From: an uncultured Clostridia bacterium | GTDB lineage: Bacteria > Bacillota > Clostridia > Christensenellales > UBA1242 | Assembly: GCA_944349895.1 (NCBI GenBank) | Contig: CALVNQ010000001.1 | Location: 48,948-112,947 of the forward strand | Direction of reading: 5' to 3' | DNA: 64,000 nt | Notes under the pieces: model-generated | Database searches by the model: none | The model's input: the letters and a program-made list of their open reading frames with translations, nothing else | What the model was told of the DNA's origin: nothing | Position numbers and translations under genes: made by a program | Shown here: in pieces, positions 6,580-61,032 of the stretch | How positions within the stretch are numbered: the stretch's first letter is position 1 | Layout: every line of letters starts with the position of its first letter

Positions 6580-8121
6580 ATGAATGATTTTTTATTAAAA
6601 CTTCAACAATATAAGAATGGGGCCTATGATTTTTTAAAATTATATAATGTTTGTTTTGATAAATCTCAGAATCTTTGTGAGATAGTTTTTTTATACCCAG
6701 AAGAACTTTCAGAGATCGACCAAAACACAAGGGACGATATCTTAAATTTTGCAACAGATTATTTAAAATTACATTGTAATATAAAAGTTAAATTTAAAAA
6801 AAGTTTTTTAGATGAAAGATTACTTAAAACCATTGTTTTGAAATTTTTTGAAAACAATTTCAAATCAATATCTGCTCAATTGAATGAAAAACAAATTATT
6901 ATTAATAAAAATGAAAATTTAATCTTGATTGAATTACATTTATGCAAAGAAATTATTAATATGTTTGATAATGTGTTTATTGAAAAATTATTATTAGAAG
7001 AATTAAATAATAATTTTATTGGCAATTTTCAAATTACGATTATTGAAAGTGATAGCTATAACATTGCTGACAAAATACCACAAGTCGCGATTTCAGTTAA
7101 ACCTAAAAAAGTATCGAGATATAACGTCGAAATTATTAAAAAATTGTTTGGCAAAGACATTTCTCCTTATCCTGAATTTATCAAAGACATTAATAAACCT
7201 AAAATTAACGTTATCTTATCTGGTAAAATTTTTAATCTACAAAAAAAATCTTTTGTTATTAAATCTGGTAAAAGAAAAGGGGAAGAAAAGTTTTATTTTA
7301 CTTTTTCATTAAATGATGGCAATTCCATAGATTGCGTTTATTTCTCAACAAAAACAAATGAAAAAAAATGCTCGGCTTTAGCAGACGGAATGTACTTTTT
7401 ATGTTTAGGTAATATAAAAATTGGATTATCTAATAAATTAACATATTACATATCTTCCATGTCTTTAGCTCAAAAATCTAATAAAGTATATGGAGATGAA
7501 AATAAAAATAGTGATTTTCTTATAGAAAGAACTCCCGTTGTCAATATTGAAGACTTTTATGACCATAAGCAAGAAAACATTTTTATAAAAGAGCCTGTTT
7601 ACAAAGAAATCATTGCGTTAAAAAATATTGTGGTTTATGACTTAGAAACTACTGGATTAGATCCTGAATCTTGTGAAATTATAGAGATTGGGGCAATAAA
7701 AATTGAGAAAGGCAAAATTACAAAAAAATTTTCAACTTTTGTTAAACCAAAGTCACCAATACCTCAAGAGGCGTCAAGAATTAATCATATTACTGATGAA
7801 ATGGTCAAGGATGCTCCGGGAATTGAAGATGTTATTTTAGACTTTTATGATTTTTCAAAAGACTGTGTTTTGTCAGGCTATAATAACACAGATTTTGATA
7901 ACAAATTTTTAAGAAAAGCTGGCCAGCAGTTTGGTGTTAAATTTAACAATGAAAATATTGACGTTCTATTGCTGGCTAGGTCTAGTAATTTAAAATTGTC
8001 TAATTATAAACTTTCTTCTGTCGCTTCGGCATTGAATATAGATCTTTCTAACGCCCATAGGGCTTATAATGACGCATTTGCAACTGCTAAAATACTTTTA
8101 AAACTTAACGAAATTGATTAA
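6580..8121 (+). CDS. PolC-like N-terminal/OB/DEDDh 3'-5' exonuclease protein lacking PHP and polymerase modules
   Basis: The three exonuclease motifs are present (VVYDLETTGLD, SGYNNTDFDNKFL, HRAYNDAFATAKILLKL). An OB-like segment (VILSGKIFNLQ...FYFTFSLNDGNSIDCVYFS) is collinear with the PolC OB domain. The ORF ends right after ExoIII. Confidence 0.7.
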   Translation: MNDFLLKLQQYKNGAYDFLKLYNVCFDKSQNLCEIVFLYPEELSEIDQNTRDDILNFATDYLKLHCNIKVKFKKSFLDERLLKTIVLKFFENNFKSISAQLNEKQIIINKNENLILIELHLCKEIINMFDNVFIEKLLLEELNNNFIGNFQITIIESDSYNIADKIPQVAISVKPKKVSRYNVEIIKKLFGKDISPYPEFIKDINKPKINVILSGKIFNLQKKSFVIKSGKRKGEEKFYFTFSLNDGNSIDCVYFSTKTNEKKCSALADGMYFLCLGNIKIGLSNKLTYYISSMSLAQKSNKVYGDENKNSDFLIERTPVVNIEDFYDHKQENIFIKEPVYKEIIALKNIVVYDLETTGLDPESCEIIEIGAIKIEKGKITKKFSTFVKPKSPIPQEASRINHITDEMVKDAPGIEDVILDFYDFSKDCVLSGYNNTDFDNKFLRKAGQQFGVKFNNENIDVLLLARSSNLKLSNYKLSSVASALNIDLSNAHRAYNDAFATAKILLKLNEID

Positions 8122-39873: not shown

Positions 39874-40911
39874 ATGAATAATCTTAATTATTACGAAAAG
39901 AGAGATTTGGACAATCAAAAAAAAATTAGGAAAATTATAGCAACTCTGCCAGACTTTTGCTATGATTATTTTATAGGTATAGAAAACAATTCTTCTTCCC
40001 TTACAAGATTAAATTATGCTATGGATTTAAACATTTTTTTTGATTATTTAAGTGTTATTTTAAACAAGGAAAAACAATTTATAAATTTAGACGACCTAAA
40101 TAATATAAAGCCAAATCAAATAGAACAATTTTTATCACATTTAAGCTATTATGATATCGACGGTAAAATTATAAAAAACGGAGAAAAAGGAAAAGCAAGA
40201 AAGTTAGCCTCAATAAGGAGCTTATTTAAGTATTTATTCAATCATGATTTAATTTCTTCAAATGTTGCCAGCAAGGTCCAAACTCCTAAGCTCCATAATA
40301 AAGAAATAATAAGGCTGGAATCCGATGAAGTTTCAAGGCTTTTCGATGCTGTCGCTTCAAATAATACTTTTTCTAACAGGCAAAAAGCATATGACTTAAA
40401 TACAAAAGACAGAGACAATGCCATCGTCACTTTATTTTTGGGCACAGGCATTCGTATTTCTGAATGCGTTGGTTTAAATATCGAAGATTTCGATTTTTCG
40501 CAAAATGCGTTTAAAGTCACAAGAAAAGGTGGAAACCAAACCGTTCTATATTTTTCTGAAGAAGTCGCACAAGCTTTAAAAACTTGGATTAAAAAACGAA
40601 GCACTTTAAATCTTGATGAAAATGAACATGCGATGTTTGTTAGTTTACAAAAAAAGAGAATATCTGTGAGAGCAGTTGAAAACTTAGTTAAAAAGTTTGC
40701 AAAAGAAGCAGCTCCATTAAAAAAAATTTCACCTCATAAATTAAGAAGCACTTTCGGTACAAATTTATATAGAGAAACCAAAGATATTTATATTGTGGCA
40801 GATGTTTTGGGCCATAAAGATGTCAATACAACAAAAAAGCACTATGCAGCTATTAGTGAAGACATGCGTAAACAAGTGGCAAATAAAATTAAATTAAATT
40901 GTAATGATTAA
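39874..40911 (+). CDS. tyrosine recombinase (XerC/XerD-like integrase family)
   Basis: The C-terminal catalytic region has GTGIRISE, HKLRSTFGT and GHKDVNTTKKHY. Confidence 0.85.
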   Translation: MNNLNYYEKRDLDNQKKIRKIIATLPDFCYDYFIGIENNSSSLTRLNYAMDLNIFFDYLSVILNKEKQFINLDDLNNIKPNQIEQFLSHLSYYDIDGKIIKNGEKGKARKLASIRSLFKYLFNHDLISSNVASKVQTPKLHNKEIIRLESDEVSRLFDAVASNNTFSNRQKAYDLNTKDRDNAIVTLFLGTGIRISECVGLNIEDFDFSQNAFKVTRKGGNQTVLYFSEEVAQALKTWIKKRSTLNLDENEHAMFVSLQKKRISVRAVENLVKKFAKEAAPLKKISPHKLRSTFGTNLYRETKDIYIVADVLGHKDVNTTKKHYAAISEDMRKQVANKIKLNCND

Positions 40912-50496: not shown

Positions 50497-50745
50497 TAAA
50501 AAACTCCTTCGCCTATATTAGGGCGAAAGAGCGTCTTCCACGTTACCACCTAATTTCAGCATTTCATTACAAAAAATGCCCTTCTTCTGCAATATTACGG
50601 TTGCCACCGATTTGGCCTACTACTAACTTTCAACCAAACAGCTCCAAAGGCGAATTCGTTGATTAGACATGATTTTTCGCACCAACCAAAATCTCTCTGA
50701 GATGTCTTAAAACAACCATGTTCCTTCATCATAGCTTTTAAATTC
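50497..50745 (-). promoter_or_regulatory. T-box riboswitch leader, Phe specifier (UUC)
   Basis: All elements are on the minus strand. Stem I carries AGAGA and GGTGCGAAA. The specifier loop AACGAATTCGCC places UUC at 50654-50652. The T-box sequence is AATTAGGTGGTAACGTGG (50556-50539). The terminator pairs CTCTTTCGCC with GGCGAAGGAG and is followed by U6. Confidence 0.85.
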
Positions 50746-50803: not shown

Positions 50804-51673
50804 ATGAAAACCATACAATTTAAATCTAACAAAAACTATAAAAATTTATATTTTTTTTTAAAAGATAAAGGTTTATCCGAATCTTTAATTTCTTTTTTGC
50901 GCAATAACCCAAAAACAATTTTTATAAATGGGCAAGCTTCCACAATCAAAACAAAAATATATAAAAAGGATAAAATTACCTTAAATTTTTATGACAACAC
51001 CAGCACTAAAGTTCCATATAACAATATGCCACTTAATATAATATTTGAAAACGACGACTTACTGATTATAGATAAACCTGCAGGAATCCCAACAATACCC
51101 TCTAAAAGACACTATGATTATAACTTAGCAGGAGCAGTTTGTAAATATATGTGCAAAAAACAACAAAATTTTGTATTTAGAGTGGAAGGGAGACTTGATA
51201 AAGACACTTCAGGACTAGTTTTAATTACAAAAAATCAATTGGCAAGTTCGATGATAAAATACAAAAAAGAATATGTAGCCATTTGTCATGGCACATTTAA
51301 AACTAGAAAATTCACTATTGATTCCCCTATTTTAACCATCACAAAGAATAATATCAATCAACAACAACGAGTAATTAACGAAAACGGCAAAAAGGCAATC
51401 ACCCATGTAAAAGTTCTAAAAAGTTTCGACAACTTTTCTCTAATACAACTATCTTTAGAACAAGGCAGAACACATCAGATAAGATTACATATGTCAAAAA
51501 TTAGACATCCTCTTTTAGGAGATAAGTTATATGGTATAATAGATAACGTCGACAGATCTTTATTACACTGTCATAAAATGGAAATTAGATTACCATTTTA
51601 TAAAAGACCAATTAAAGTAAAAACAGATTTACCAAAAGATTTCACAGAGATATTAAAAAACCGAATCACCTGA
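50804..51673 (+). CDS. RluA-family pseudouridine synthase with S4-like N-terminus
   Basis: Contains the GRLDKDTSGLVL catalytic motif and GRTHQIRLH. The start is uncertain among 50774, 50786 and 50804. ATG 50804 lies 8 nt after TGaTATACT. Confidence 0.8.
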   Translation: MKTIQFKSNKNYKNLYFFLKDKGLSESLISFLRNNPKTIFINGQASTIKTKIYKKDKITLNFYDNTSTKVPYNNMPLNIIFENDDLLIIDKPAGIPTIPSKRHYDYNLAGAVCKYMCKKQQNFVFRVEGRLDKDTSGLVLITKNQLASSMIKYKKEYVAICHGTFKTRKFTIDSPILTITKNNINQQQRVINENGKKAITHVKVLKSFDNFSLIQLSLEQGRTHQIRLHMSKIRHPLLGDKLYGIIDNVDRSLLHCHKMEIRLPFYKRPIKVKTDLPKDFTEILKNRIT

Positions 51674-52306
51674 AGTAAAATAAAATTGTGGTACTTCCCC
51701 AACTATAATATTTTCACACACTAAAATTTGTGTTATAAAATCCACTTTTTTTGTTGTCAAAGGCAATATAACACTTATAGTAACATTAGCATTAATATAT
51801 AACGAATGTTTAGTTTGATTTATACCTGCCGAGATAAAATCCGAACTAAAAGAAGTAATTACCGAACCAATAGGTAATATTTTTATATTTATTTTAGGTC
51901 CAATTCCCGAAAGAGCATTTAAACCCGAAAAAGTTCCTAATGGAACACTAATGCCATGTTCACTAACTTTATCCAACAAAATTTGAGCTTCAGTTGAAAG
52001 TTCTCTAGCAAAATTATTAAGGGTAATTGAATCAGCAGTTATTGATGAAACTTTATTTTCAGAAGAATATGTTACATCTATAAAATCATCATAAGCATAC
52101 CCTTTTTCCTGTATAACATCATATATAGCATCGCTAATAGCAGTGGTGGCAACAGAATCTACTTGTGCCCTAGACACTTCGACAACAAGTGGGCCAACGA
52201 TGTAATTAAAATATAAAAAAACAGACAAAATCAAAAAAAGAATTATACCTAGACCTATATAGGCTTTGGTTTTCCAATTATATTTTTTGCGTTTTATTTT
52301 TTGCAT
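51653..52306 (-). CDS. yunB: sporulation protein YunB
   Basis: N-terminal TM helix plus the GPKINIKILPIGSV...AGINQTKH...IVGEVP blocks typical of YunB. Confidence 0.8.
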   Translation of the reverse strand: MQKIKRKKYNWKTKAYIGLGIILFLILSVFLYFNYIVGPLVVEVSRAQVDSVATTAISDAIYDVIQEKGYAYDDFIDVTYSSENKVSSITADSITLNNFARELSTEAQILLDKVSEHGISVPLGTFSGLNALSGIGPKINIKILPIGSVITSFSSDFISAGINQTKHSLYINANVTISVILPLTTKKVDFITQILVCENIIVGEVPQFYFTSGDSVF

Positions 52307-52348
52307 ACATATATATATGTTTTTTTATTTGCAAAATTGATACTATAT

Positions 52349-52377
52349 ATTGTATTATTTATGACATAATACTATGC
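52349..52377 (-). promoter_or_regulatory. sigma-E-like promoter candidate for yunB
   Basis: On the minus strand: GCATAGT, a 14-nt spacer, then AATACAAT. The recalled consensus is kmATAtt-14-CATACAnT. Confidence 0.3.
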
Positions 52378-52731
52378 TTATTTTGTTTTGGACCTTGAAA
52401 TTAAGGAAAATATAAAGGCAAATATTACTGCTGCAGCAATTCCACCTGCTGTTGCTTCCAAACCACCTACGAAGGCCCCCAACAGTCCAGAAGATTCAAC
52501 TGCGTTCATCGCCCCTTTTGCTAAAGACGCCCCGAAACCTATAATTGGCACATTTATTCCAGCTTTAGCAAATTCAGAAATTGGCTGAAACAAATTAAAA
52601 GCTTGCAAAATAACGCCTATCAAAACGAAGGTTACCAATATCCTTGCAGAAGTTATTTTGGTTGTTATAATTAAAATTTCCCCTAGCATACACACAAGGC
52701 CACCAATTAAAAATACCCATAAATATTCCAT
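52378..52731 (-). CDS. spoVAE: stage V sporulation protein AE (SpoVAEb-type)
   Basis: 117-aa 4-TM protein that follows spoVAD. Confidence 0.88.
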   Translation of the reverse strand: MEYLWVFLIGGLVCMLGEILIITTKITSARILVTFVLIGVILQAFNLFQPISEFAKAGINVPIIGFGASLAKGAMNAVESSGLLGAFVGGLEATAGGIAAAVIFAFIFSLISRSKTK

Positions 52732-53727
52732 TTAATCTCCTCCTGCCTCCAAAACAATCGCATGACTTATACCGGGAATTGATTCACCTTGTTGTGTTGC
52801 AGTTGTTGACATCAATGCCCCGGTAGGAACAAACAAAATTCTTTTAAACTTTTTGGCTTTCAACTTTTTTATAATATACGAATTAAGAACAGAAGCACTT
52901 ACTCCACACCCACTCGCACCACACATGGTATCCTGTTTTCTAGAATAATAACAATGCCCACAATCCGAATAATTTGGGCCCAACTTAACTCCTCGTCCCT
53001 CCAATAAATCTATCAATATTTCTGCTCCTAGTTTTCCTAAATCTCCTGTAAGAATTAAGTCATAATCGCTCGGCTTCCTTCCGGTTTCATTTAAATGGGT
53101 ATAAATCGTATCAGCCGCTGATGGAGCCATGGCTGCCCCCATATTGTTAACGTCAGTTATCCCATAATCAATAACTTTTCCAAAAGTCGCCATAGACACA
53201 ACGGGTCCTTCCCCCTCTAAAGACAAAACACAAGCTCCTGCTGCCGTTGCCGTCCATTGTGAAGTTGGCACTCTTTGATTGCCAAGCTCTAAAGGAAATC
53301 TAAATTGTCTTTCCGCAGTTGAAAAATGTGAACCTGTTGCACATGCAACATTATGAAAATGTCCAGCATTTATCAATATGGCTCCGGTTGCTAATGATTC
53401 TGCCATGGTTGAGCAGGCACTAAAAACACCTAAATAAGGAAATTCATATGCTCTCGCTGTAAAAGAAGAAGAGATAATCTGATTTAACAAATCTCCGGCT
53501 AGCAATAAATCTATATCACCAGAATGCAATCCTGCATTCTGTATAGCCCCCGTAACAGCCTGTTCGAACATTTTTCTTTCTGCCATTTCATATGTTTTTT
53601 CGCCAAAGCCATCACTTTTCATAACATAATCAAAAAATGAACCGAAAGGCCCCTTTCCTTCTTTTGGTCCAACAATCGAATAGCTTCCTATTATTTTTGG
53701 TTTGCTTTTAAATTCTATTGTCTGCAT
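52732..53727 (-). CDS. spoVAD: stage V sporulation protein AD
   Basis: Thiolase-like fold, 331 aa, with GVFSACST and the GALMS region. Confidence 0.92.
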   Translation of the reverse strand: MQTIEFKSKPKIIGSYSIVGPKEGKGPFGSFFDYVMKSDGFGEKTYEMAERKMFEQAVTGAIQNAGLHSGDIDLLLAGDLLNQIISSSFTARAYEFPYLGVFSACSTMAESLATGAILINAGHFHNVACATGSHFSTAERQFRFPLELGNQRVPTSQWTATAAGACVLSLEGEGPVVSMATFGKVIDYGITDVNNMGAAMAPSAADTIYTHLNETGRKPSDYDLILTGDLGKLGAEILIDLLEGRGVKLGPNYSDCGHCYYSRKQDTMCGASGCGVSASVLNSYIIKKLKAKKFKRILFVPTGALMSTTATQQGESIPGISHAIVLEAGGD

Positions 53728-53937
53728 ATTTGAAATCCTTTGATTATAAATTACAGTTTCAACTATTGTAGGCTCTTTAACAAAACCTTGTTTTTTTTAA
53801 TTAACTATAAGTTTATATTTTACAAAACAAAAGATTTTAAACATAAATTTGATCACAAAACTTTGATTTTCTGACAAAAATTTCTTTTAAAGCAACCTAA
53901 ATTTATTAACAATATTGCACTTTTATATCTACTTTAT

Positions 53938-54393
53938 TTAAAATAATCCTATTATAAAATAAATTATACCAACAACTATACTTGCAACTATTCCTGTGAC
54001 TATAACAGGACCTGCTATGCTAAACATTTTCACACAAGTTCCATAAATAATTCCTTCGTGCTTATATTCAATAGCTGGAGATGCTATAGAATTAGAAAAT
54101 CCTGTAATAGGGACTATGCTGCCACCACCTGCAAATTTACCAATTTTGTCATAAACACCTAACCCCGTTAATAAAGATGCTAGAAAAATTAAAATAATTA
54201 AAGTCCAAGCCCAAGCTGATTGTTGGGACATAGATGGAAATATATAAATGATCAAATCATTTATTCCTTGCCCGATTAAACAAATTAATCCACCCACCCA
54301 AAAAGAATTAAATAAAGACGGCCAAGCTTTTGTTTTAGGTATTCTTGCCTCAACATACGAATTATATGCTTCATTAATTTTTTCGTTTTTCAT
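53938..54393 (-). CDS. spoVAC: stage V sporulation protein AC
   Basis: I prefer ATG 54393 after GGAGAG, which gives ~151 aa, as for the B. subtilis protein. The ORF-track TTG at 54426 is the alternative. Contains the FWVGGLICLIGQ region. Confidence 0.88.
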   Translation of the reverse strand: MKNEKINEAYNSYVEARIPKTKAWPSLFNSFWVGGLICLIGQGINDLIIYIFPSMSQQSAWAWTLIILIFLASLLTGLGVYDKIGKFAGGGSIVPITGFSNSIASPAIEYKHEGIIYGTCVKMFSIAGPVIVTGIVASIVVGIIYFIIGLF

Positions 54394-54621
54394 AAACTCT
54401 CCAAAGTCTTTATTTATTTTCTCCAAAATATTATAGAATAAACATCATTTATTTCTTAAAATAAAAACTGCAACATAATAAATAACAGTTGCTGAAAATA
54501 ATTCATCAACTGCCAATTTTAAATATCAAATTTGATAAAGCTTTTATAAAAAAGAAAATTTAAAATTTTTTTATATAAATTTAAAACGCAAATTGAATTT
54601 TCAAGGCAAGACAGAAACTGC

Positions 54622-56034
54622 TTAATTCGAAAAATCTTCAACCGTATAAGCTGTATCGGACACAAAAGAAATATACTTAGACATATCGTCTTGACATATA
54701 GGTGTGCAATTATGATAATTCGCAGCCACGTTAACCCCCAACCTTTTTACAGGTTTTAGAGAATGCACATGCCCAAAAAAGTTTACAATGTCGGGTTTTG
54801 TTTTGGAAGGGAAATGATTCATAAAAACATCTCTACCGAACACTTTTTTATCTAACATTACCCCTTCCTTAAAGACATTATAAAATCCCATTTTCCTAAG
54901 CTTTGCTTTAAATTGTTCAAAGCTCAATCCCATTTTTTCCATATCAGCAATTTCATGATTGCCACAAATAAGATTCACCTTGCCATTAAGTCTTTTAATC
55001 ATTTTATAATTACCAAAATCACCTAAATGATAAACTATATCTTTTTTTGAAACAACACTATTCCAATTTTTTATGATTGTTTCGGTCATTTCTTCTTTTG
55101 TTTTAAAACCAAATTGTTTTATCTTATATTTTCGGCTATCATCTAAGTGTGTATCAGAAATAAAGAAATGATTTATTGGGGAAAAGTTATTGCTTAGTTT
55201 TGTCAAATTATTGGCAAAATTTTTCCATATCTCTTCTGTTGATTTAAGATCATACACATAATTAACTAACTTTGTCATAGAAGTTTTTTGAAAATCCTTT
55301 AGCAATAGATTTAAAGGCAATTTTTTTACATAACAAAAGTCGTGGTTAATAAGATATGCTATCGGTGTTATGCTATACATTCTACAAAATTCTTGAGAGA
55401 AATTAAAGAGCCCAGTAATCCTTCTGTATAAATAATTCCCTAAATGATTTACACATATATCTTTTTGAATTTTATTTAATGAAACATTAAACAGCTTACC
55501 TATGTAACTTGGGAAAATAGTCAAATCAGCATCTGATTTAGCAACAATTTCAAAAGCTTTTTTATCGGTTTGACTATTCAAATCTGTAAATTCTTGATGG
55601 AATATATGCCTGAGGCCTATCCATAATATTTTTAAATTTTTAGCAATATTTGGCTTTATTTTTATAGCAATCGCCAGATTTGTCAATCCACCAAGACAGA
55701 CAACCGTTATTTCTTTTTTACTTGCCAAAGAGATGATTTTTTTAACCGCAGGTGAAGATTCATAATATGAATCGTCGCAAAATCCTTGGCTCCCCTCAAA
55801 ACATATCTTATAGTCTTTTAAGCCTATGTATCTGAGCAGTCTATGTAATTCTAATTGATTCTCTACTTGAGAATTTTTTACATTAATAGATCCAAATTTG
55901 AACGGAGATAATGTAATAGCCTCAATTTTAAAACATTTTTCAGAAAACGCATAACAAAGTGCCAAATCATCTTCTATAGTTCTGCCTAGATCTGAATCTA
56001 TAATTAAATTGATAGCACGCTTATTCTTATTCAT
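54622..56034 (-). CDS. fusion protein: nucleoside-hydrolase-like N-terminal domain + calcineurin-like metallophosphoesterase C-terminal domain
   Basis: The N-terminus NLIIDSDLGRTIEDDLAL resembles the IU-nucleoside-hydrolase DxDxxxDD motif but has an insertion. The C-terminus has the MPE motifs SDTHL, LGDFG, GNHE, NHFP and GHVH. Confidence 0.7.
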   Translation of the reverse strand: MNKNKRAINLIIDSDLGRTIEDDLALCYAFSEKCFKIEAITLSPFKFGSINVKNSQVENQLELHRLLRYIGLKDYKICFEGSQGFCDDSYYESSPAVKKIISLASKKEITVVCLGGLTNLAIAIKIKPNIAKNLKILWIGLRHIFHQEFTDLNSQTDKKAFEIVAKSDADLTIFPSYIGKLFNVSLNKIQKDICVNHLGNYLYRRITGLFNFSQEFCRMYSITPIAYLINHDFCYVKKLPLNLLLKDFQKTSMTKLVNYVYDLKSTEEIWKNFANNLTKLSNNFSPINHFFISDTHLDDSRKYKIKQFGFKTKEEMTETIIKNWNSVVSKKDIVYHLGDFGNYKMIKRLNGKVNLICGNHEIADMEKMGLSFEQFKAKLRKMGFYNVFKEGVMLDKKVFGRDVFMNHFPSKTKPDIVNFFGHVHSLKPVKRLGVNVAANYHNCTPICQDDMSKYISFVSDTAYTVEDFSN

Positions 56035-56040
56035 AGATAA

Positions 56041-56049
56041 ATTATATCA
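56041..56049 (-). promoter_or_regulatory. extended -10 (TGaTATAAT) positioned for leaderless transcript of the fusion gene
   Basis: On the minus strand: TGATATAAT, 6 nt (TTATCT), then ATG at 56034. No SD is present, and the -35 (TTTTTA) is weak. Confidence 0.45.
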
Positions 56050-56218
56050 TAAAAAAACAATTATAAAAACAAATAAACATTAAATATTTTATTAAAAACA
56101 AGAACTTTCATATTCAATCAGGCTTTTTATCAAGATAAATTGCAAAATAATTTTTATTTTGCTACTCAAAGAATAAACATAAATTTATTACTCAAACTAA
56201 AAAAAATTAGGAGGAATT

Positions 56219-57649
56219 ATGAAAAAAACATTATTTATCGCTGGTTTAAGTTTGGCAACAATTTTAACCATGACAGGTTGCAATAACACATCTAACGAAG
56301 AGGCAATAATCGACAATTTATCACATCAATTAGACAAAACCACAAACACCGTTTCAAGTGTAACATTAGAACCAACAGACAATCTTAACGTCGAAGGCGT
56401 TTCAAAAATTTTGTCAAATTCTTCATCAAATTCATTCGCTAAATTATCTAATATTTATCAAAATGCTAAAAGCACCTCTTCAGATATAGAAAAAAATAAA
56501 ACCGAAATTCTTAGCAAAGCGAAAATGTTAAAAAAAGAAATAGCTGGAGGCGTAAATCTTGGCAATAAAAATGCTAGCGCAATTTCTGAGCTTACATCAA
56601 GCATGCAAAAATATACTACAAATCTAGGGAAAACCAAAAGTGACTATAAAAATACCATAAAAAGCATCGCAAAACAAATAAATACGATAGATGAAAATGA
56701 ATTAGATGCAAAAGCAACAAGACTTAACTGCTGTTTAGAGGCAAGGAACTGTTATTTAAAAAACATATTATTAACTTTAAATAATATTGAAAACATTTTA
56801 ACAAATCTTGACAATCAAGAAGATTATAATTTAAATTACGATGATGCAAATCAATCATTAGACATGAATAATATTATTACTTCTGAGCAAACATCTGAAT
56901 CTGCAAATCTACAACAAGAAAATGCAATGATTAATAATTACCCTTACTATAATCAATACGAAAATTTTAACAATTATAGAAATAATACATTTAATCCTAA
57001 TAGAAATACTGATACTTATGGCCCTGGAATAACAAATATAGACACATATAGAAATTATGGTTACAACAATTATAACAACGGATATTATAATGGTTATAAT
57101 AATTTTCAAGGAGACAGGCATTTTGGAGGATCGAATGGTGTTAATAATATTACCGTAAAAGAAAATGATTTAGAAAAGAAAACTAACAATGACACAGAAA
57201 CATCAGATGAAAACTTATATTCAAATAATTCTAATGAAGAGAATAATGTTGTTGTAGAAACAGATAAAGATAAAGTAGAAGCAAAAGAAACATCTTCTCA
57301 AAACAACCAAAAAATGTCTGTCGACAACAACTCAAACATAAAAAAATATCCAAATGAAAAAGGCTTTAAGAAAGAAATATCTGACACAAGAGGAAAAGAA
57401 GATACTAAAAAAGTATTACCGGCTAAAACAAAAGAAAACAACATTAATAATACTGAAGAATTTAATGATAATAAACAAGAAGATTTGAAAATTAAGTCTG
57501 TTATGATGAAGGATGACTCCTCTGATCAAGAAATAAAAAATAATGAGTCTTTAGGTGTTGAAGACAAAGATTTGGCCAAAGGACACACACAAACCCTTTC
57601 TTTCTTAAATGACATAAATAAAAAAATAGAACGTTTAATTAAAAACTAA
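56219..57649 (+). CDS. hypothetical lipoprotein with Asn/Tyr/Gly-rich low-complexity core
   Basis: The signal peptide has the lipobox LTMTGC, and the SD is strong (AGGAGGAA). The central region reads NNYPYYNQYENFNNYRNN...YGYNNYNNGYYNGYNNF. Confidence 0.8.
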   Translation: MKKTLFIAGLSLATILTMTGCNNTSNEEAIIDNLSHQLDKTTNTVSSVTLEPTDNLNVEGVSKILSNSSSNSFAKLSNIYQNAKSTSSDIEKNKTEILSKAKMLKKEIAGGVNLGNKNASAISELTSSMQKYTTNLGKTKSDYKNTIKSIAKQINTIDENELDAKATRLNCCLEARNCYLKNILLTLNNIENILTNLDNQEDYNLNYDDANQSLDMNNIITSEQTSESANLQQENAMINNYPYYNQYENFNNYRNNTFNPNRNTDTYGPGITNIDTYRNYGYNNYNNGYYNGYNNFQGDRHFGGSNGVNNITVKENDLEKKTNNDTETSDENLYSNNSNEENNVVVETDKDKVEAKETSSQNNQKMSVDNNSNIKKYPNEKGFKKEISDTRGKEDTKKVLPAKTKENNINNTEEFNDNKQEDLKIKSVMMKDDSSDQEIKNNESLGVEDKDLAKGHTQTLSFLNDINKKIERLIKN

Positions 57650-57675
57650 AAAATTGTCTCTTAGGACAATTTTTT
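57650..57675. terminator. bidirectional terminator between lipoprotein gene and sigF
   Basis: Stem AAAATTGTC pairs with GACAATTTT around a 6-nt loop, with A/T runs on both sides. It overlaps the sigF stop. Confidence 0.7.
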
Positions 57676-58383
57676 CTTTAAATTTTCCAAAATTTTATTT
57701 TCCAATCTTGAAACTTGAACTTGCGATATATGGAGTAATGTGGCAATTTCGCTCTGTGTTTTGTCATAAAAATATCTCATTAAAATTATTGTTTTGTCTC
57801 TATTGGATAATTCTGAAACCAACTCTCTTATAGCAATTTTGTCTACTAAACTATTAGCATTATTCTCATTGTCAACCCTATCTATAACAAGTAAGCTGTC
57901 GGAATCAGCTTCATCAAAAGGCGCATATAACGACACAGGCATTCTTGATGAATCCATGGCCATCACAACGTCCCCTTCTTCCACTTGAAAATGATTTGCT
58001 ATTTCTTCAACTGTAGGTTTAACCTTTTTATCTGCATAATAAGACTCTATAAATTTTTTTATTTTTATATTTAAAGATTTTATTGCTCTTGAAACTTTTA
58101 TTGCGCCATCATCTCTCATATATCTCTTTATTTCACCTATAACCATAGGAACCACATATGTTGAAAATTTTACATTAAATTCAGGGTTAAAATTTTTTAT
58201 TGCTTTAACAAAACCTAAACAACCAAGCTGATAAAGATCGTCGTATTCTAATCCCTTGCTGACAAATCGTTTAATTATACTTTTTATTAAAGGAGAATTT
58301 TCCGCAATCAGCGCACTCTTTGCTTCCTCATCTCCTTCTTGCGCCAATTTTACCAGCCTTTTTACTTCTTCACTATCTAACAT
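57661..58383 (-). CDS. sigF: sporulation sigma factor SigF
   Basis: A sigma-70-family protein with regions 2-4 (DLYQLGCLGFVKAIKNF, SQSEIATLLHISQVQVSRLE). It is the third gene of the spoIIA operon. Confidence 0.9.
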   Translation of the reverse strand: MLDSEEVKRLVKLAQEGDEEAKSALIAENSPLIKSIIKRFVSKGLEYDDLYQLGCLGFVKAIKNFNPEFNVKFSTYVVPMVIGEIKRYMRDDGAIKVSRAIKSLNIKIKKFIESYYADKKVKPTVEEIANHFQVEEGDVVMAMDSSRMPVSLYAPFDEADSDSLLVIDRVDNENNANSLVDKIAIRELVSELSNRDKTIILMRYFYDKTQSEIATLLHISQVQVSRLENKILENLKKKLS

Positions 58384-58826
58384 GACTGTTTATTAAGTGC
58401 GCTTCTTTTTAATGTTTTTCTCAAAATAACTTTAAGCCCTCTTTCACCATTTTTTTCTAAATCCACACTATCCATAAAGCTCTCCATCACAGCAAAGCCC
58501 ATACCACTTCTTTCTTCATCAGGACGTGTGGTATAAAAAGGTTCACGGGCTTTATCAAAATCTTTAATACCAACTCCTTGGTCCATAATTGAAATAATGA
58601 CATCGTTATTTTCAAATTCCACTCTCATAACAATATCTCCATCGCTTTTAGGATAAGCATGAACAACAGAATTGGTAACAGCTTCAGAAACAGCAGTTTT
58701 AATATCGTTTATCTCATCTATTGAAGGGTTTAAAGGAAGACAAAAACTTGCCACACAAACCCTTGCAAAGCTTTCGTTGACTGATTCAGCCTTAAATTTA
58801 ACTTCCATAAAATTATTTCTTTTCAT
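58377..58826 (-). CDS. spoIIAB: anti-sigma F factor / serine kinase SpoIIAB
   Basis: Contains NESFARVCVASF...EAVTNSVVHAY and GMGF. I chose ATG 58826 by alignment logic with the Bacillus N-terminus and by SD spacing. Confidence 0.9.
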   Translation of the reverse strand: MKRNNFMEVKFKAESVNESFARVCVASFCLPLNPSIDEINDIKTAVSEAVTNSVVHAYPKSDGDIVMRVEFENNDVIISIMDQGVGIKDFDKAREPFYTTRPDEERSGMGFAVMESFMDSVDLEKNGERGLKVILRKTLKRSALNKQSC

Positions 58827-58847
58827 AAATTTTTTCACATCCCCTTT

Positions 58848-59156
58848 TTAAACTATTTTTGGCATCAAATCATAAAGTCCAGTCATTTTAAAAATTTTTT
58901 CTGCATGTGAAGAAGGATTGCAAATATAAATAGGAATTTGCCTATCTTTCATTTTTTTATATCTTCCTATAAGCACACCTATACCAGTGGAATCCATAAA
59001 TTCTAGCTCTGACAAATCAATTATAATTTGTTTAAAAATTCCACTTCCAAAAGCTTTATCCATTTCTTCTCTTACATAAGTAGCTGAATGTTCATCAAGT
59101 TCTCCACATAAAAGAACATACAAAGTTCCGTTATAAATTCTCGATTTTAATTTCAT
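58848..59156 (-). CDS. spoIIAA: anti-sigma F factor antagonist SpoIIAA (STAS)
   Basis: 102-aa STAS domain with the phosphorylatable DSTGIG motif. Confidence 0.9.
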   Translation of the reverse strand: MKLKSRIYNGTLYVLLCGELDEHSATYVREEMDKAFGSGIFKQIIIDLSELEFMDSTGIGVLIGRYKKMKDRQIPIYICNPSSHAEKIFKMTGLYDLMPKIV

Positions 59157-60955: not shown

Positions 60956-61032
60956 CGGGGTGTAGCGCAGTTGGTAGCGCGCATGGTTCGGGACCATGAG
61001 GTCGCGAGTTCAAATCTCGCCACTCCGACCAA
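60956..61032 (+). tRNA. tRNA-Pro (anticodon CGG), CCA encoded
   Basis: I folded the cloverleaf by hand. The acceptor stem pairs CGGGGTG with CACTCCG. The anticodon loop TTCGGGA gives CGG. The T-arm is GAGTTCAAATCTC, and the 3' end is ACCA. Confidence 0.9.

Follow-up and report, generated by a model that had tools for sequence, protein, structure and literature searches.

A nucleoside hydrolase-metallophosphoesterase fusion of uncultured gut Clostridia, candidate for a two-domain nucleotide-catabolic enzyme often encoded near the spoIIA operon

A 64,000-nucleotide stretch of genomic DNA from an uncultured Clostridia bacterium (Christensenellales, UBA1242; contig CALVNQ010000001.1), which as a whole is called the window below, carries a gene for a single polypeptide of 470 amino acids (aa) in which a nucleoside-hydrolase (NH) domain is followed by a metallophosphoesterase (MPE) domain. 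This NH-MPE fusion is an undescribed domain combination; both halves come from well-known superfamilies, and the chemistry predicted for them is conventional. We read the protein, with moderate confidence, as a cytoplasmic two-domain enzyme of nucleotide catabolism or salvage. According to this model, the MPE domain, which is of the type found in AQ_1665 and phrog_547, would hydrolyse a ribonucleotide phosphate mono- or diester to a nucleoside, after which the ribose moiety would be bound by the NH-fold domain, which in the majority of family members at least would cleave the N-glycosidic bond to give base and ribose. A sigma-A-like extended -10 promoter belonging to the native gene itself would drive its transcription, most likely into a leaderless mRNA.

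The gene consists of one open reading frame (ORF), as a previous interpretation of the bare DNA (the sequence-only reading) had proposed. The location described there, together with a divergent lipoprotein gene between the spoIIA and spoVA operons, was likewise recovered: the order is sigF, lipoprotein-like gene, fusion, spoVAC (coordinates in Table 1). Because an independent metagenome assembly (L086), whose encoded protein is 99% identical, has the same gene order, and because the GC content across the fusion gene, about 28-29%, matches that of its neighbours, the arrangement is genuine and the gene appears native. Misassembly is ruled out by the order in L086, and recent horizontal transfer by the neighbour-like GC content and the syntenic locus. 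No signal-peptide-like N-terminus was found in the sequence of the fusion protein.

The N-terminal half is an NH, in accordance with the sequence-only reading. The Pfam family IU_nuc_hydro (PF01156) matches residues 10-242 with 59.9 bits (gathering score 34.2), and the top 50 Foldseek matches in the Protein Data Bank (PDB) are all NHs, with target-normalised template modelling (TM) scores of 0.58-0.74. An AlphaFold2 (AF2) model of the full protein, computed from 71 family sequences, has a mean predicted local distance difference test score (pLDDT) of 89, each domain being modelled confidently. Residue states of the NH site were taken from an alignment of the family profile to E. coli RihB/YeiK and from a residue table over 71 clusters. 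The key residues are D13, D15, E21, D22, T118-N119, D151, N153, D157, Y220 and S221. D13, the general base and a Ca ligand, and D15 are retained; the acidic residue at position 21 (Asp or Glu) and D22 are equivalent to the D14/D15 pair; T118-N119 supplies the Thr-Asn pair of the Ca loop, including the Thr whose carbonyl is a Ca ligand; and the ribose-hydroxyl binders Glu166 and Asn168 have their counterparts in D151 and N153. With the exception of E21, Y220 and S221, all these positions are invariant or nearly so across the clusters.

The canonical fingerprint DxDxxxDD is absent. In its place stands D13-x-D15-x5-E21-D22, which contains an insertion relative to YeiK while the acidic residues themselves are conserved. 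The sequence-only reading had recognised both the resemblance and the insertion, but the latter measures two residues instead of four or five, and the conserved pair is E21-D22, not D22-D23. An intact catalytic His, also considered there, did not hold up: by the alignment to YeiK/RihB, Tyr220 occupies its place. At this position, directly before the last Ca-coordinating Asp, the family has Tyr in 59 clusters, Phe in 9, His in 2 and Gln in 1. What separates NH groups I, II and III is the presence of His, Trp or Cys here (PMC8910321), and the window protein has none of these three leaving-group activators. Orthology to RihA, RihB, RihC or UriH was rejected; the respective NCBIfam models score 19-35 bits, with cut-offs of 382-459. 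Compared with the Ca2+-dependent NHs (IU-NH of C. fasciculata; RihA, RihB and RihC of E. coli), the fusion shares the fold, the first two Asp residues, the acidic pair, the Thr-Asn and the ribose binders, but differs in its DxD-x5-[D/E]D motif, in Tyr (Phe or Trp in relatives) before the last Asp, in Ser221, and in the fused phosphoesterase. Judged by its sequence, the domain is a divergent NH subtype outside the His, Trp and Cys groups.

In the C-terminal half, all five MPE motifs listed in the sequence-only reading were found, namely SDTHL (residue 293), GDFG (338), GNHE (358), NHFP (406) and GHVH (421). The motif residues are D294/H296, D339, N359-H360-E361, H407 and H422/H424, with metal ligands invariant across A5; GNYE takes the place of GNHE in 43 of the 71 fusion members. 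The Pfam family Metallophos_2 (PF12850) matches residues 290-427 with 28.7 bits (gathering score 27). When modelled alone, the domain reaches a pLDDT of 92 and a predicted TM score (pTM) of 0.89 and adopts the MPE beta-sandwich fold. The nearest solved structure, and the sole close one, is 1xm7 (Aquifex AQ_1665; E=1.9e-9, TM 0.66); SapH (an Ap4A hydrolase), LpxH, Mre11 and Rv0805 follow at a greater distance. The phage family phrog_547, annotated 'phosphoesterase', matches with E=1.5e-30. Homologues of the MPE domain occur in 527 phage genomes, always under generic annotation, and the neighbourhood of the homologue in Enterococcus phage EFDG1 holds no informative genes. AQ_1665 and phrog_547 are the closest relatives of the fusion MPE in sequence and structure, being minimal binuclear MPEs of about 180 aa with all motifs, but they are stand-alone proteins whose substrate is unknown.

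The family is narrow. A word-indexed search yielded about 71 clusters at 90% identity that share length and architecture; nearly all are unnamed. One cluster record, from Candidatus Caccovivens, is labelled 'nucleoside hydrolase', and no cluster members carry names. When a single genome from each GTDB species was scanned, the full-length fusion was detected in 62 genomes, all of them metagenome-assembled genomes of uncultured Clostridia from gut, rumen or faeces (labelled Clostridia, Eubacteriales, Christensenella sp., Catabacter sp. or Caccovivens). Among 1.84 billion representatives of clusters at 50% identity, searched exhaustively with HMMER, just two were full-length, and every other strong match covered a single domain. 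Furthermore, we found no description of the fusion protein in the literature on the architecture, on NH-nucleotidase fusions and on the 'Swiss Army Knife' RNA-repair phosphoesterases. The sequence-only reading was right that this combination does not correspond to a described enzyme, and what was found is an uncharacterised family, not a widespread and characterised one.

The best available support for a coupled reaction, in which dephosphorylation would be followed by N-glycosidic cleavage, is the recurrent pairing of phosphatases with N-glycosidases. The NH subtype (DxD-x5-DD, aromatic-Asp pair) is also present in stand-alone proteins of about 289 aa and in proteins of about 475 aa with an N-terminal HAD-type NT5C 5'-nucleotidase (NT5C-NH; for example P0141 and P0160). 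The NT5C-NH family accounts for 2,528 matches at E<1e-10, some clusters occurring on hundreds of contigs. The MPE subtype, for its part, is fused elsewhere to Nuc_deoxyri_tr2 (nucleoside 2-deoxyribosyltransferase-like), HAD_SAK_2 phosphatase and cytidylyltransferase-like domains. One NH subtype has thus recruited two unrelated phosphatase folds independently, and one MPE subtype two unrelated N-glycosidase-type folds. NT5C-NH proteins share with the fusion the divergent NH subtype and the joining of phosphatase and NH in a single chain; they differ in that the phosphatase is N-terminal and of HAD type, and in that they are very abundant and located on mobile elements, not beside spoIIA. A functional analogy may be drawn to yeast, where the nucleotidase Phm8 and then the nucleosidase Urh1 are reported to serve nucleotide degradation and ribose salvage (PMC4039369). 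The proposed route from nucleoside monophosphate to nucleoside to base and ribose would be the same, but Phm8 and Urh1 are separate proteins of different families.

Several observations weigh against the two-step model. The pTM of 0.66 for the full-length AF2 model leaves the relative placement of the NH and MPE domains undefined. The function of 1xm7 is unknown, and the farther structural neighbours SapH, LpxH and Rv0805 are pyrophosphatases or diesterases, not nucleotidases. A fusion clade of seven clusters (P0025-P0028, P0033, P0034 and P0036) is devoid of MPE catalytic residues (D294N, H296Y, H407Y or H407N, H422Q), and its MPE domain is still well conserved, with 76% identity within the clade, which suggests that the inactive-site domain keeps a non-catalytic role. 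Because this clade lost the residues yet keeps the domain, two-step catalysis is not obligatory throughout the family. Finally, N-ribohydrolase activity of the window protein itself is uncertain because the catalytic His and one Ca ligand are absent (Tyr220, Ser221); catalysis may be altered or lost. The two-step nucleotide-to-base enzyme suggested in the sequence-only reading is backed, indirectly, by the recurrent NT5C-NH and MPE-deoxyribosyltransferase-like fusions and weakened by these active-site losses.

The altered NH site allows for a rival interpretation. Where the third Ca-coordinating Asp (Asp242 of IU-NH) is expected, some 230 residues downstream, the window protein has Ser221, as is the case for 16 of the 71 clusters. 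In the 14 clusters that form the clade of the window protein (at least 64% identity), Ser221 is without exception correlated with D21E and with a new Asp at position 23, and along its stem branch divergence of the NH domain was accelerated, with an identity to other clades of 0.374 compared with 0.491 for the MPE domain. These changes, along with Tyr in place of His, would fit a non-catalytic NH domain that binds ribose or a nucleoside and serves the phosphoesterase as a specificity or regulatory module, the protein then being a phosphoesterase with a single activity on a nucleotide or ribosylated ligand, for example ADP-ribose, an NDP-sugar or a (cyclic) dinucleotide; nucleotide pyrophosphates and diesters are what the structural neighbours of the MPE domain hydrolyse. 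There are precedents for ligand binding without hydrolysis at an altered catalytic site on the NH fold: XopQ binds ADP-ribose, and the NH-like domain of Sde_0182 is inactive (PMC8910321). XopQ/HopQ1 is a type III effector, however, and Sde_0182 a carbohydrate-binding multidomain protein, and their sequence relation to the fusion is limited to the fold. We consider a non-catalytic NH domain unlikely on balance. The remaining ribose and metal residues are all retained, and an NH/MPE identity ratio of 0.88 within the clade, against 0.82 in other clades, indicates that the NH domain is still constrained; its site appears to have been remodelled and not to be decaying. The gained D23 could make up for the missing ligand; the literature knows non-standard NHs that are active despite a remodelled metal site, as well as NHs without a homologue of His241 (PMC8910321); and in the family as a whole the third Asp is kept in 55 of the 71 clusters.

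The genomic context was surveyed at 62 loci by tblastn with the neighbours from the window and by clustering of all flanking ORFs. In about 45 of the 62 genomes, the fusion lies within approximately 6 kb of spoIIAA-spoIIAB-sigF, and four arrangements can be distinguished. Arrangement (a), found in the window species only, consists of the spoIIA operon, the lipoprotein gene, the fusion and spoVA. In arrangement (b), which is represented by about 25 distant genomes with 35-40% identity, spoIIAA, spoIIAB, sigF and the fusion follow each other on one strand. In arrangement (c), the fusion is divergent from degV-SDR-spoIIA (5 genomes). Arrangement (d) comprises about 16 genomes, including the closest relatives, with 64-82% identity: SDR and fusion are divergent, and spoIIA lies 3-5 kb downstream. 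Here sigF, the lipoprotein gene and spoVAC follow one another without interruption, and the closest relatives carry the fusion upstream of spoIIA. Hence, the insertion between spoIIA and spoVA, which the sequence-only reading had pointed out, is a peculiarity of the window species. Approximately 12-17 loci have no spoIIA within 8 kb, and several of them place the fusion among MurC, IleRS, PrmC, RF1 and UvrC.

The genes that recur around the fusion in relatives support the nucleotide-catabolic reading. In arrangement (b), a stand-alone canonical NH (about 310 aa, with DSDPGVDDAIAL and VHD motifs) is encoded divergently upstream of spoIIAA, and in the Caccovivens-type genomes NH-family genes flank the spoIIA operon on both sides. 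Downstream come an array of tRNA genes and a cytidylate kinase in tandem duplication; the kinase (about 454 aa, two Cmk domains; e.g. L032:11201-12565) follows the fusion in 15 loci. Three genomes (L032, L034 and L036; L032:7337-8014 type) have an HD_3/YfbR-like 5'-deoxynucleotidase between sigF and the fusion. Four to seven tRNA genes stand directly downstream of the fusion in several arrangements, though not at that place in the window. Proximity to spoIIA is thus frequent and survives rearrangement, while genes of nucleotide metabolism also make up the recurring neighbours. Most likely, this proximity is due to a conserved group of nucleotide-metabolism genes next to spoIIA rather than to an established control by sporulation. 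In B. subtilis, the drm-pupG operon of nucleoside catabolism probably lies immediately before dacF-spoIIA, a parallel on which the present argument does not draw.

Upstream of the fusion, the minus strand reads TGATATAAT (56049-56041), TTATCT (56040-56035) and ATG, without a Shine-Dalgarno (SD) sequence. The leaderless layout noted in the sequence-only reading, a -10 element separated from the ATG by 6 nt, is confirmed and recurs across divergent relatives. An extended -10 element (TGnTAnnnT) is present in 45 of 60 homologous upstream regions, where 20.6 would be expected. In 16 loci, its end and the ATG are exactly 6 nt apart, and in 24 of 61 the distance is 6-9 nt. Other fusion clades have a leader of about 15 nt with GGAG instead. 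Comparative sequence evidence thereby supports the leaderless interpretation of the fusion gene well. Within the window, 49 of 61 ORFs are preceded by an SD, and a layout of the leaderless type is seen at no more than about three or four; leaderless genes may be a minor but recurrent feature of the source genome. Two further starts of this type without an SD are seen on the plus strand, at 39874 (TGTTATAAT, 5 nt, ATG) and at 6580 (TAAAAT, 6 nt, ATG). The -10 motif of the fusion resembles TRTGnTATAAT, the sigma-A '-16 region' of Gram-positive promoters.

A scan of 60 loci for sigma-F/G promoters gave no strict matches and loose matches at background level, with B. subtilis patterns that also failed to match the upstream region of spoVAC, the positive control for sigma-G. 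In C. difficile, the consensus for sigma-F/G closely resembles the B. subtilis one, and spoVAC-E (CD0773-0775) is sigma-G dependent (PMC3789822). Spo0A boxes are not enriched upstream of the fusion across the family (5 loci, 2.5 expected). In four loci with arrangement (c) (L018, L019, L020 and L061), a Spo0A-box-like TG[GA]CGAA precedes the fusion ATG by 23 nt; it falls within the spacer of a promoter, TTGACA-17-TAATAT, which directly adjoins the start codon. No riboswitch or other Rfam element was found upstream of the fusion, either in the window or at nine diverse loci; the Rfam matches, a T-box, tRNAs and an L10 leader, all lie elsewhere.

These results bear on a possible role in sporulation or germination, in which the protein, expressed together with the forespore sigma factors or under their control, would act on forespore nucleotide pools or on nucleoside germinants. 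Besides the persistent neighbourhood of spoIIA in four arrangements, such a role could draw on arrangement (b), in which sigF is followed, at a distance of 42-101 nt and without a change of strand, by the start of the fusion in some 20 genomes; because a terminator-like hairpin occurs in just 7 of 20 loci, and none in 13, read-through from spoIIA is possible there, and the canonical NH occupies the other flank of spoIIA. In the window, the fusion is directly upstream of spoVAC, and no terminator-like site was detected anywhere across 53800-57800. Moreover, an NH of the exosporium, IunH, degrades the germinants inosine and adenosine in B. cereus, B. anthracis and B. thuringiensis (PMC8910321). 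That enzyme is spore-linked, but it is surface-located, single-domain, purine-specific and canonical, whereas the fusion has an MPE domain, a sigma-A-like promoter and, in contrast to what a germinant-destroying surface enzyme would have, no signal peptide. The lack of sigma-F/G motifs counts against the role only weakly, given the failed control; the sigma-A-like promoter, the unenriched Spo0A boxes, the loci among housekeeping genes and the species-specific position in the window point the same way, and a gene order shared within one lineage may be passed on without any functional meaning. We regard a sporulation or germination role as improbable, and the tie to forespore physiology drawn in the sequence-only reading is weakened to one of gene proximity.

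A part in conflict or defence, in which phage infection would be countered by depletion of nucleotides or by degradation of nucleotide signals, is very unlikely: the phage homologues of the MPE domain and the mobile NT5C-NH siblings would be in its favour, but PADLOC-DB v2 models match neither the fusion, P0043, the NT5C-NH proteins nor their neighbours, and the fusion gene is chromosomal, syntenic, native in composition and without mobile-element flanks. The NT5C-NH genes themselves are accompanied by an integrase with a Mob_Pre relaxase, or by serine recombinases with TnpV and a NikA-like gene. Their cassette is composed of Nuc_deoxyri_tr2, a 208-aa protein of unknown function, NT5C-NH, small ORFs, His_Phos_1 and HD, and may serve as a mobile module for nucleotide processing or for defence. 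The probability not taken up by these four readings falls to other functions.

If the two-step activity is real, the fusion would be the first described bacterial single-chain enzyme that converts a nucleotide to a free base. It would also establish a new NH subtype, with a fingerprint two residues longer, an aromatic residue for the catalytic His and repeated recruitment of phosphatases, and this would aid the annotation of thousands of unnamed NT5C-NH and NH proteins from gut metagenomes. The persistent adjacency to the sigma-F operon offers a concrete candidate for a possible wiring of nucleotide turnover into sporulation in poorly understood, uncultured gut spore-formers; if the linkage is merely inherited synteny, an ordinary salvage enzyme of unusual architecture would be left. 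A more far-reaching and rather speculative proposal combines these elements: a nucleotide-to-base degrader coupled to sporulation, in many lineages through read-through from spoIIA and here by its place ahead of spoVA, that would alter the nucleotide or nucleoside pools of the forespore or clear away nucleoside germinants. It would belong to a wider, so far unrecognised class of aromatic-Asp NHs obligatorily partnered with phosphatases, whose NT5C-fused relatives are plentiful on the mobile elements of gut Firmicutes.

Table 1. Location of the fusion gene, its parts and its neighbours in the window, and of related features at other loci (prefix L).
Feature	Location	Strand	Evidence or context
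NH-MPE fusion ORF, 470 aa	54622..56034	-	ORF list; PF01156 and PF12850; AF2; 71 homologous clusters with the same architecture
Divergent NH-fold domain, residues ~8-278	55201..56013	-	Pfam, Foldseek, YeiK/RihB profile alignment, residue table
Minimal binuclear MPE domain, residues ~289-458	54661..55170	-	Pfam, phrog_547, domain model, 1xm7, motifs
Extended -10 element, leaderless-type start	56041..56049	-	TGATATAAT; sequence and homologous loci
Divergent lipoprotein-like gene, 476 aa	56219..57649	+	ORF; signal peptide ends ...LTMTGC
spoIIAA-spoIIAB-sigF operon	57661..59156	-	Pfam STAS, HATPase_c_2, Sigma70 r2/r3/r4
spoVAC-spoVAD-spoVAE-yunB	51653..54426	-	Pfam and NCBIfam
Canonical stand-alone NH beside spoIIAA	L030:5161-6120, L047:5392-6315 (strand of these two); 15 other loci	-	Caccovivens-type genomes
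tRNA arrays after the fusion	L012:9584-9962, L013:2962-3762, L015:8897-9663, L030:9534-10245		
NT5C-NH loci	L081:5099-9572; L082-L085:5737-10147		

The lipoprotein-like gene beside the fusion has no Pfam or NCBIfam match. Its product combines a lipobox-like sequence at the end of the signal peptide with an Asn/Tyr-rich middle of low complexity, and the gene (cluster c10) is kept between sigF and spoVAC, in divergent orientation, in 14 related loci; it may encode an unrecognised sporulation or germination lipoprotein. In the spoVA operon of the window, spoVAC and spoVAD are separated by a gap of about 210 nt (53728-53937), and the annotated start codon of spoVAC, a TTG at 54426, is questionable, since 12 codons further on there is an ATG preceded by GGAGAG. 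A T-box leader (120.7 bits) lies at 50516-50741 on the minus strand, upstream of pheS, and a tRNA gene at 60956-61028 on the plus strand, beside the degV-SDR-spoIIA block.

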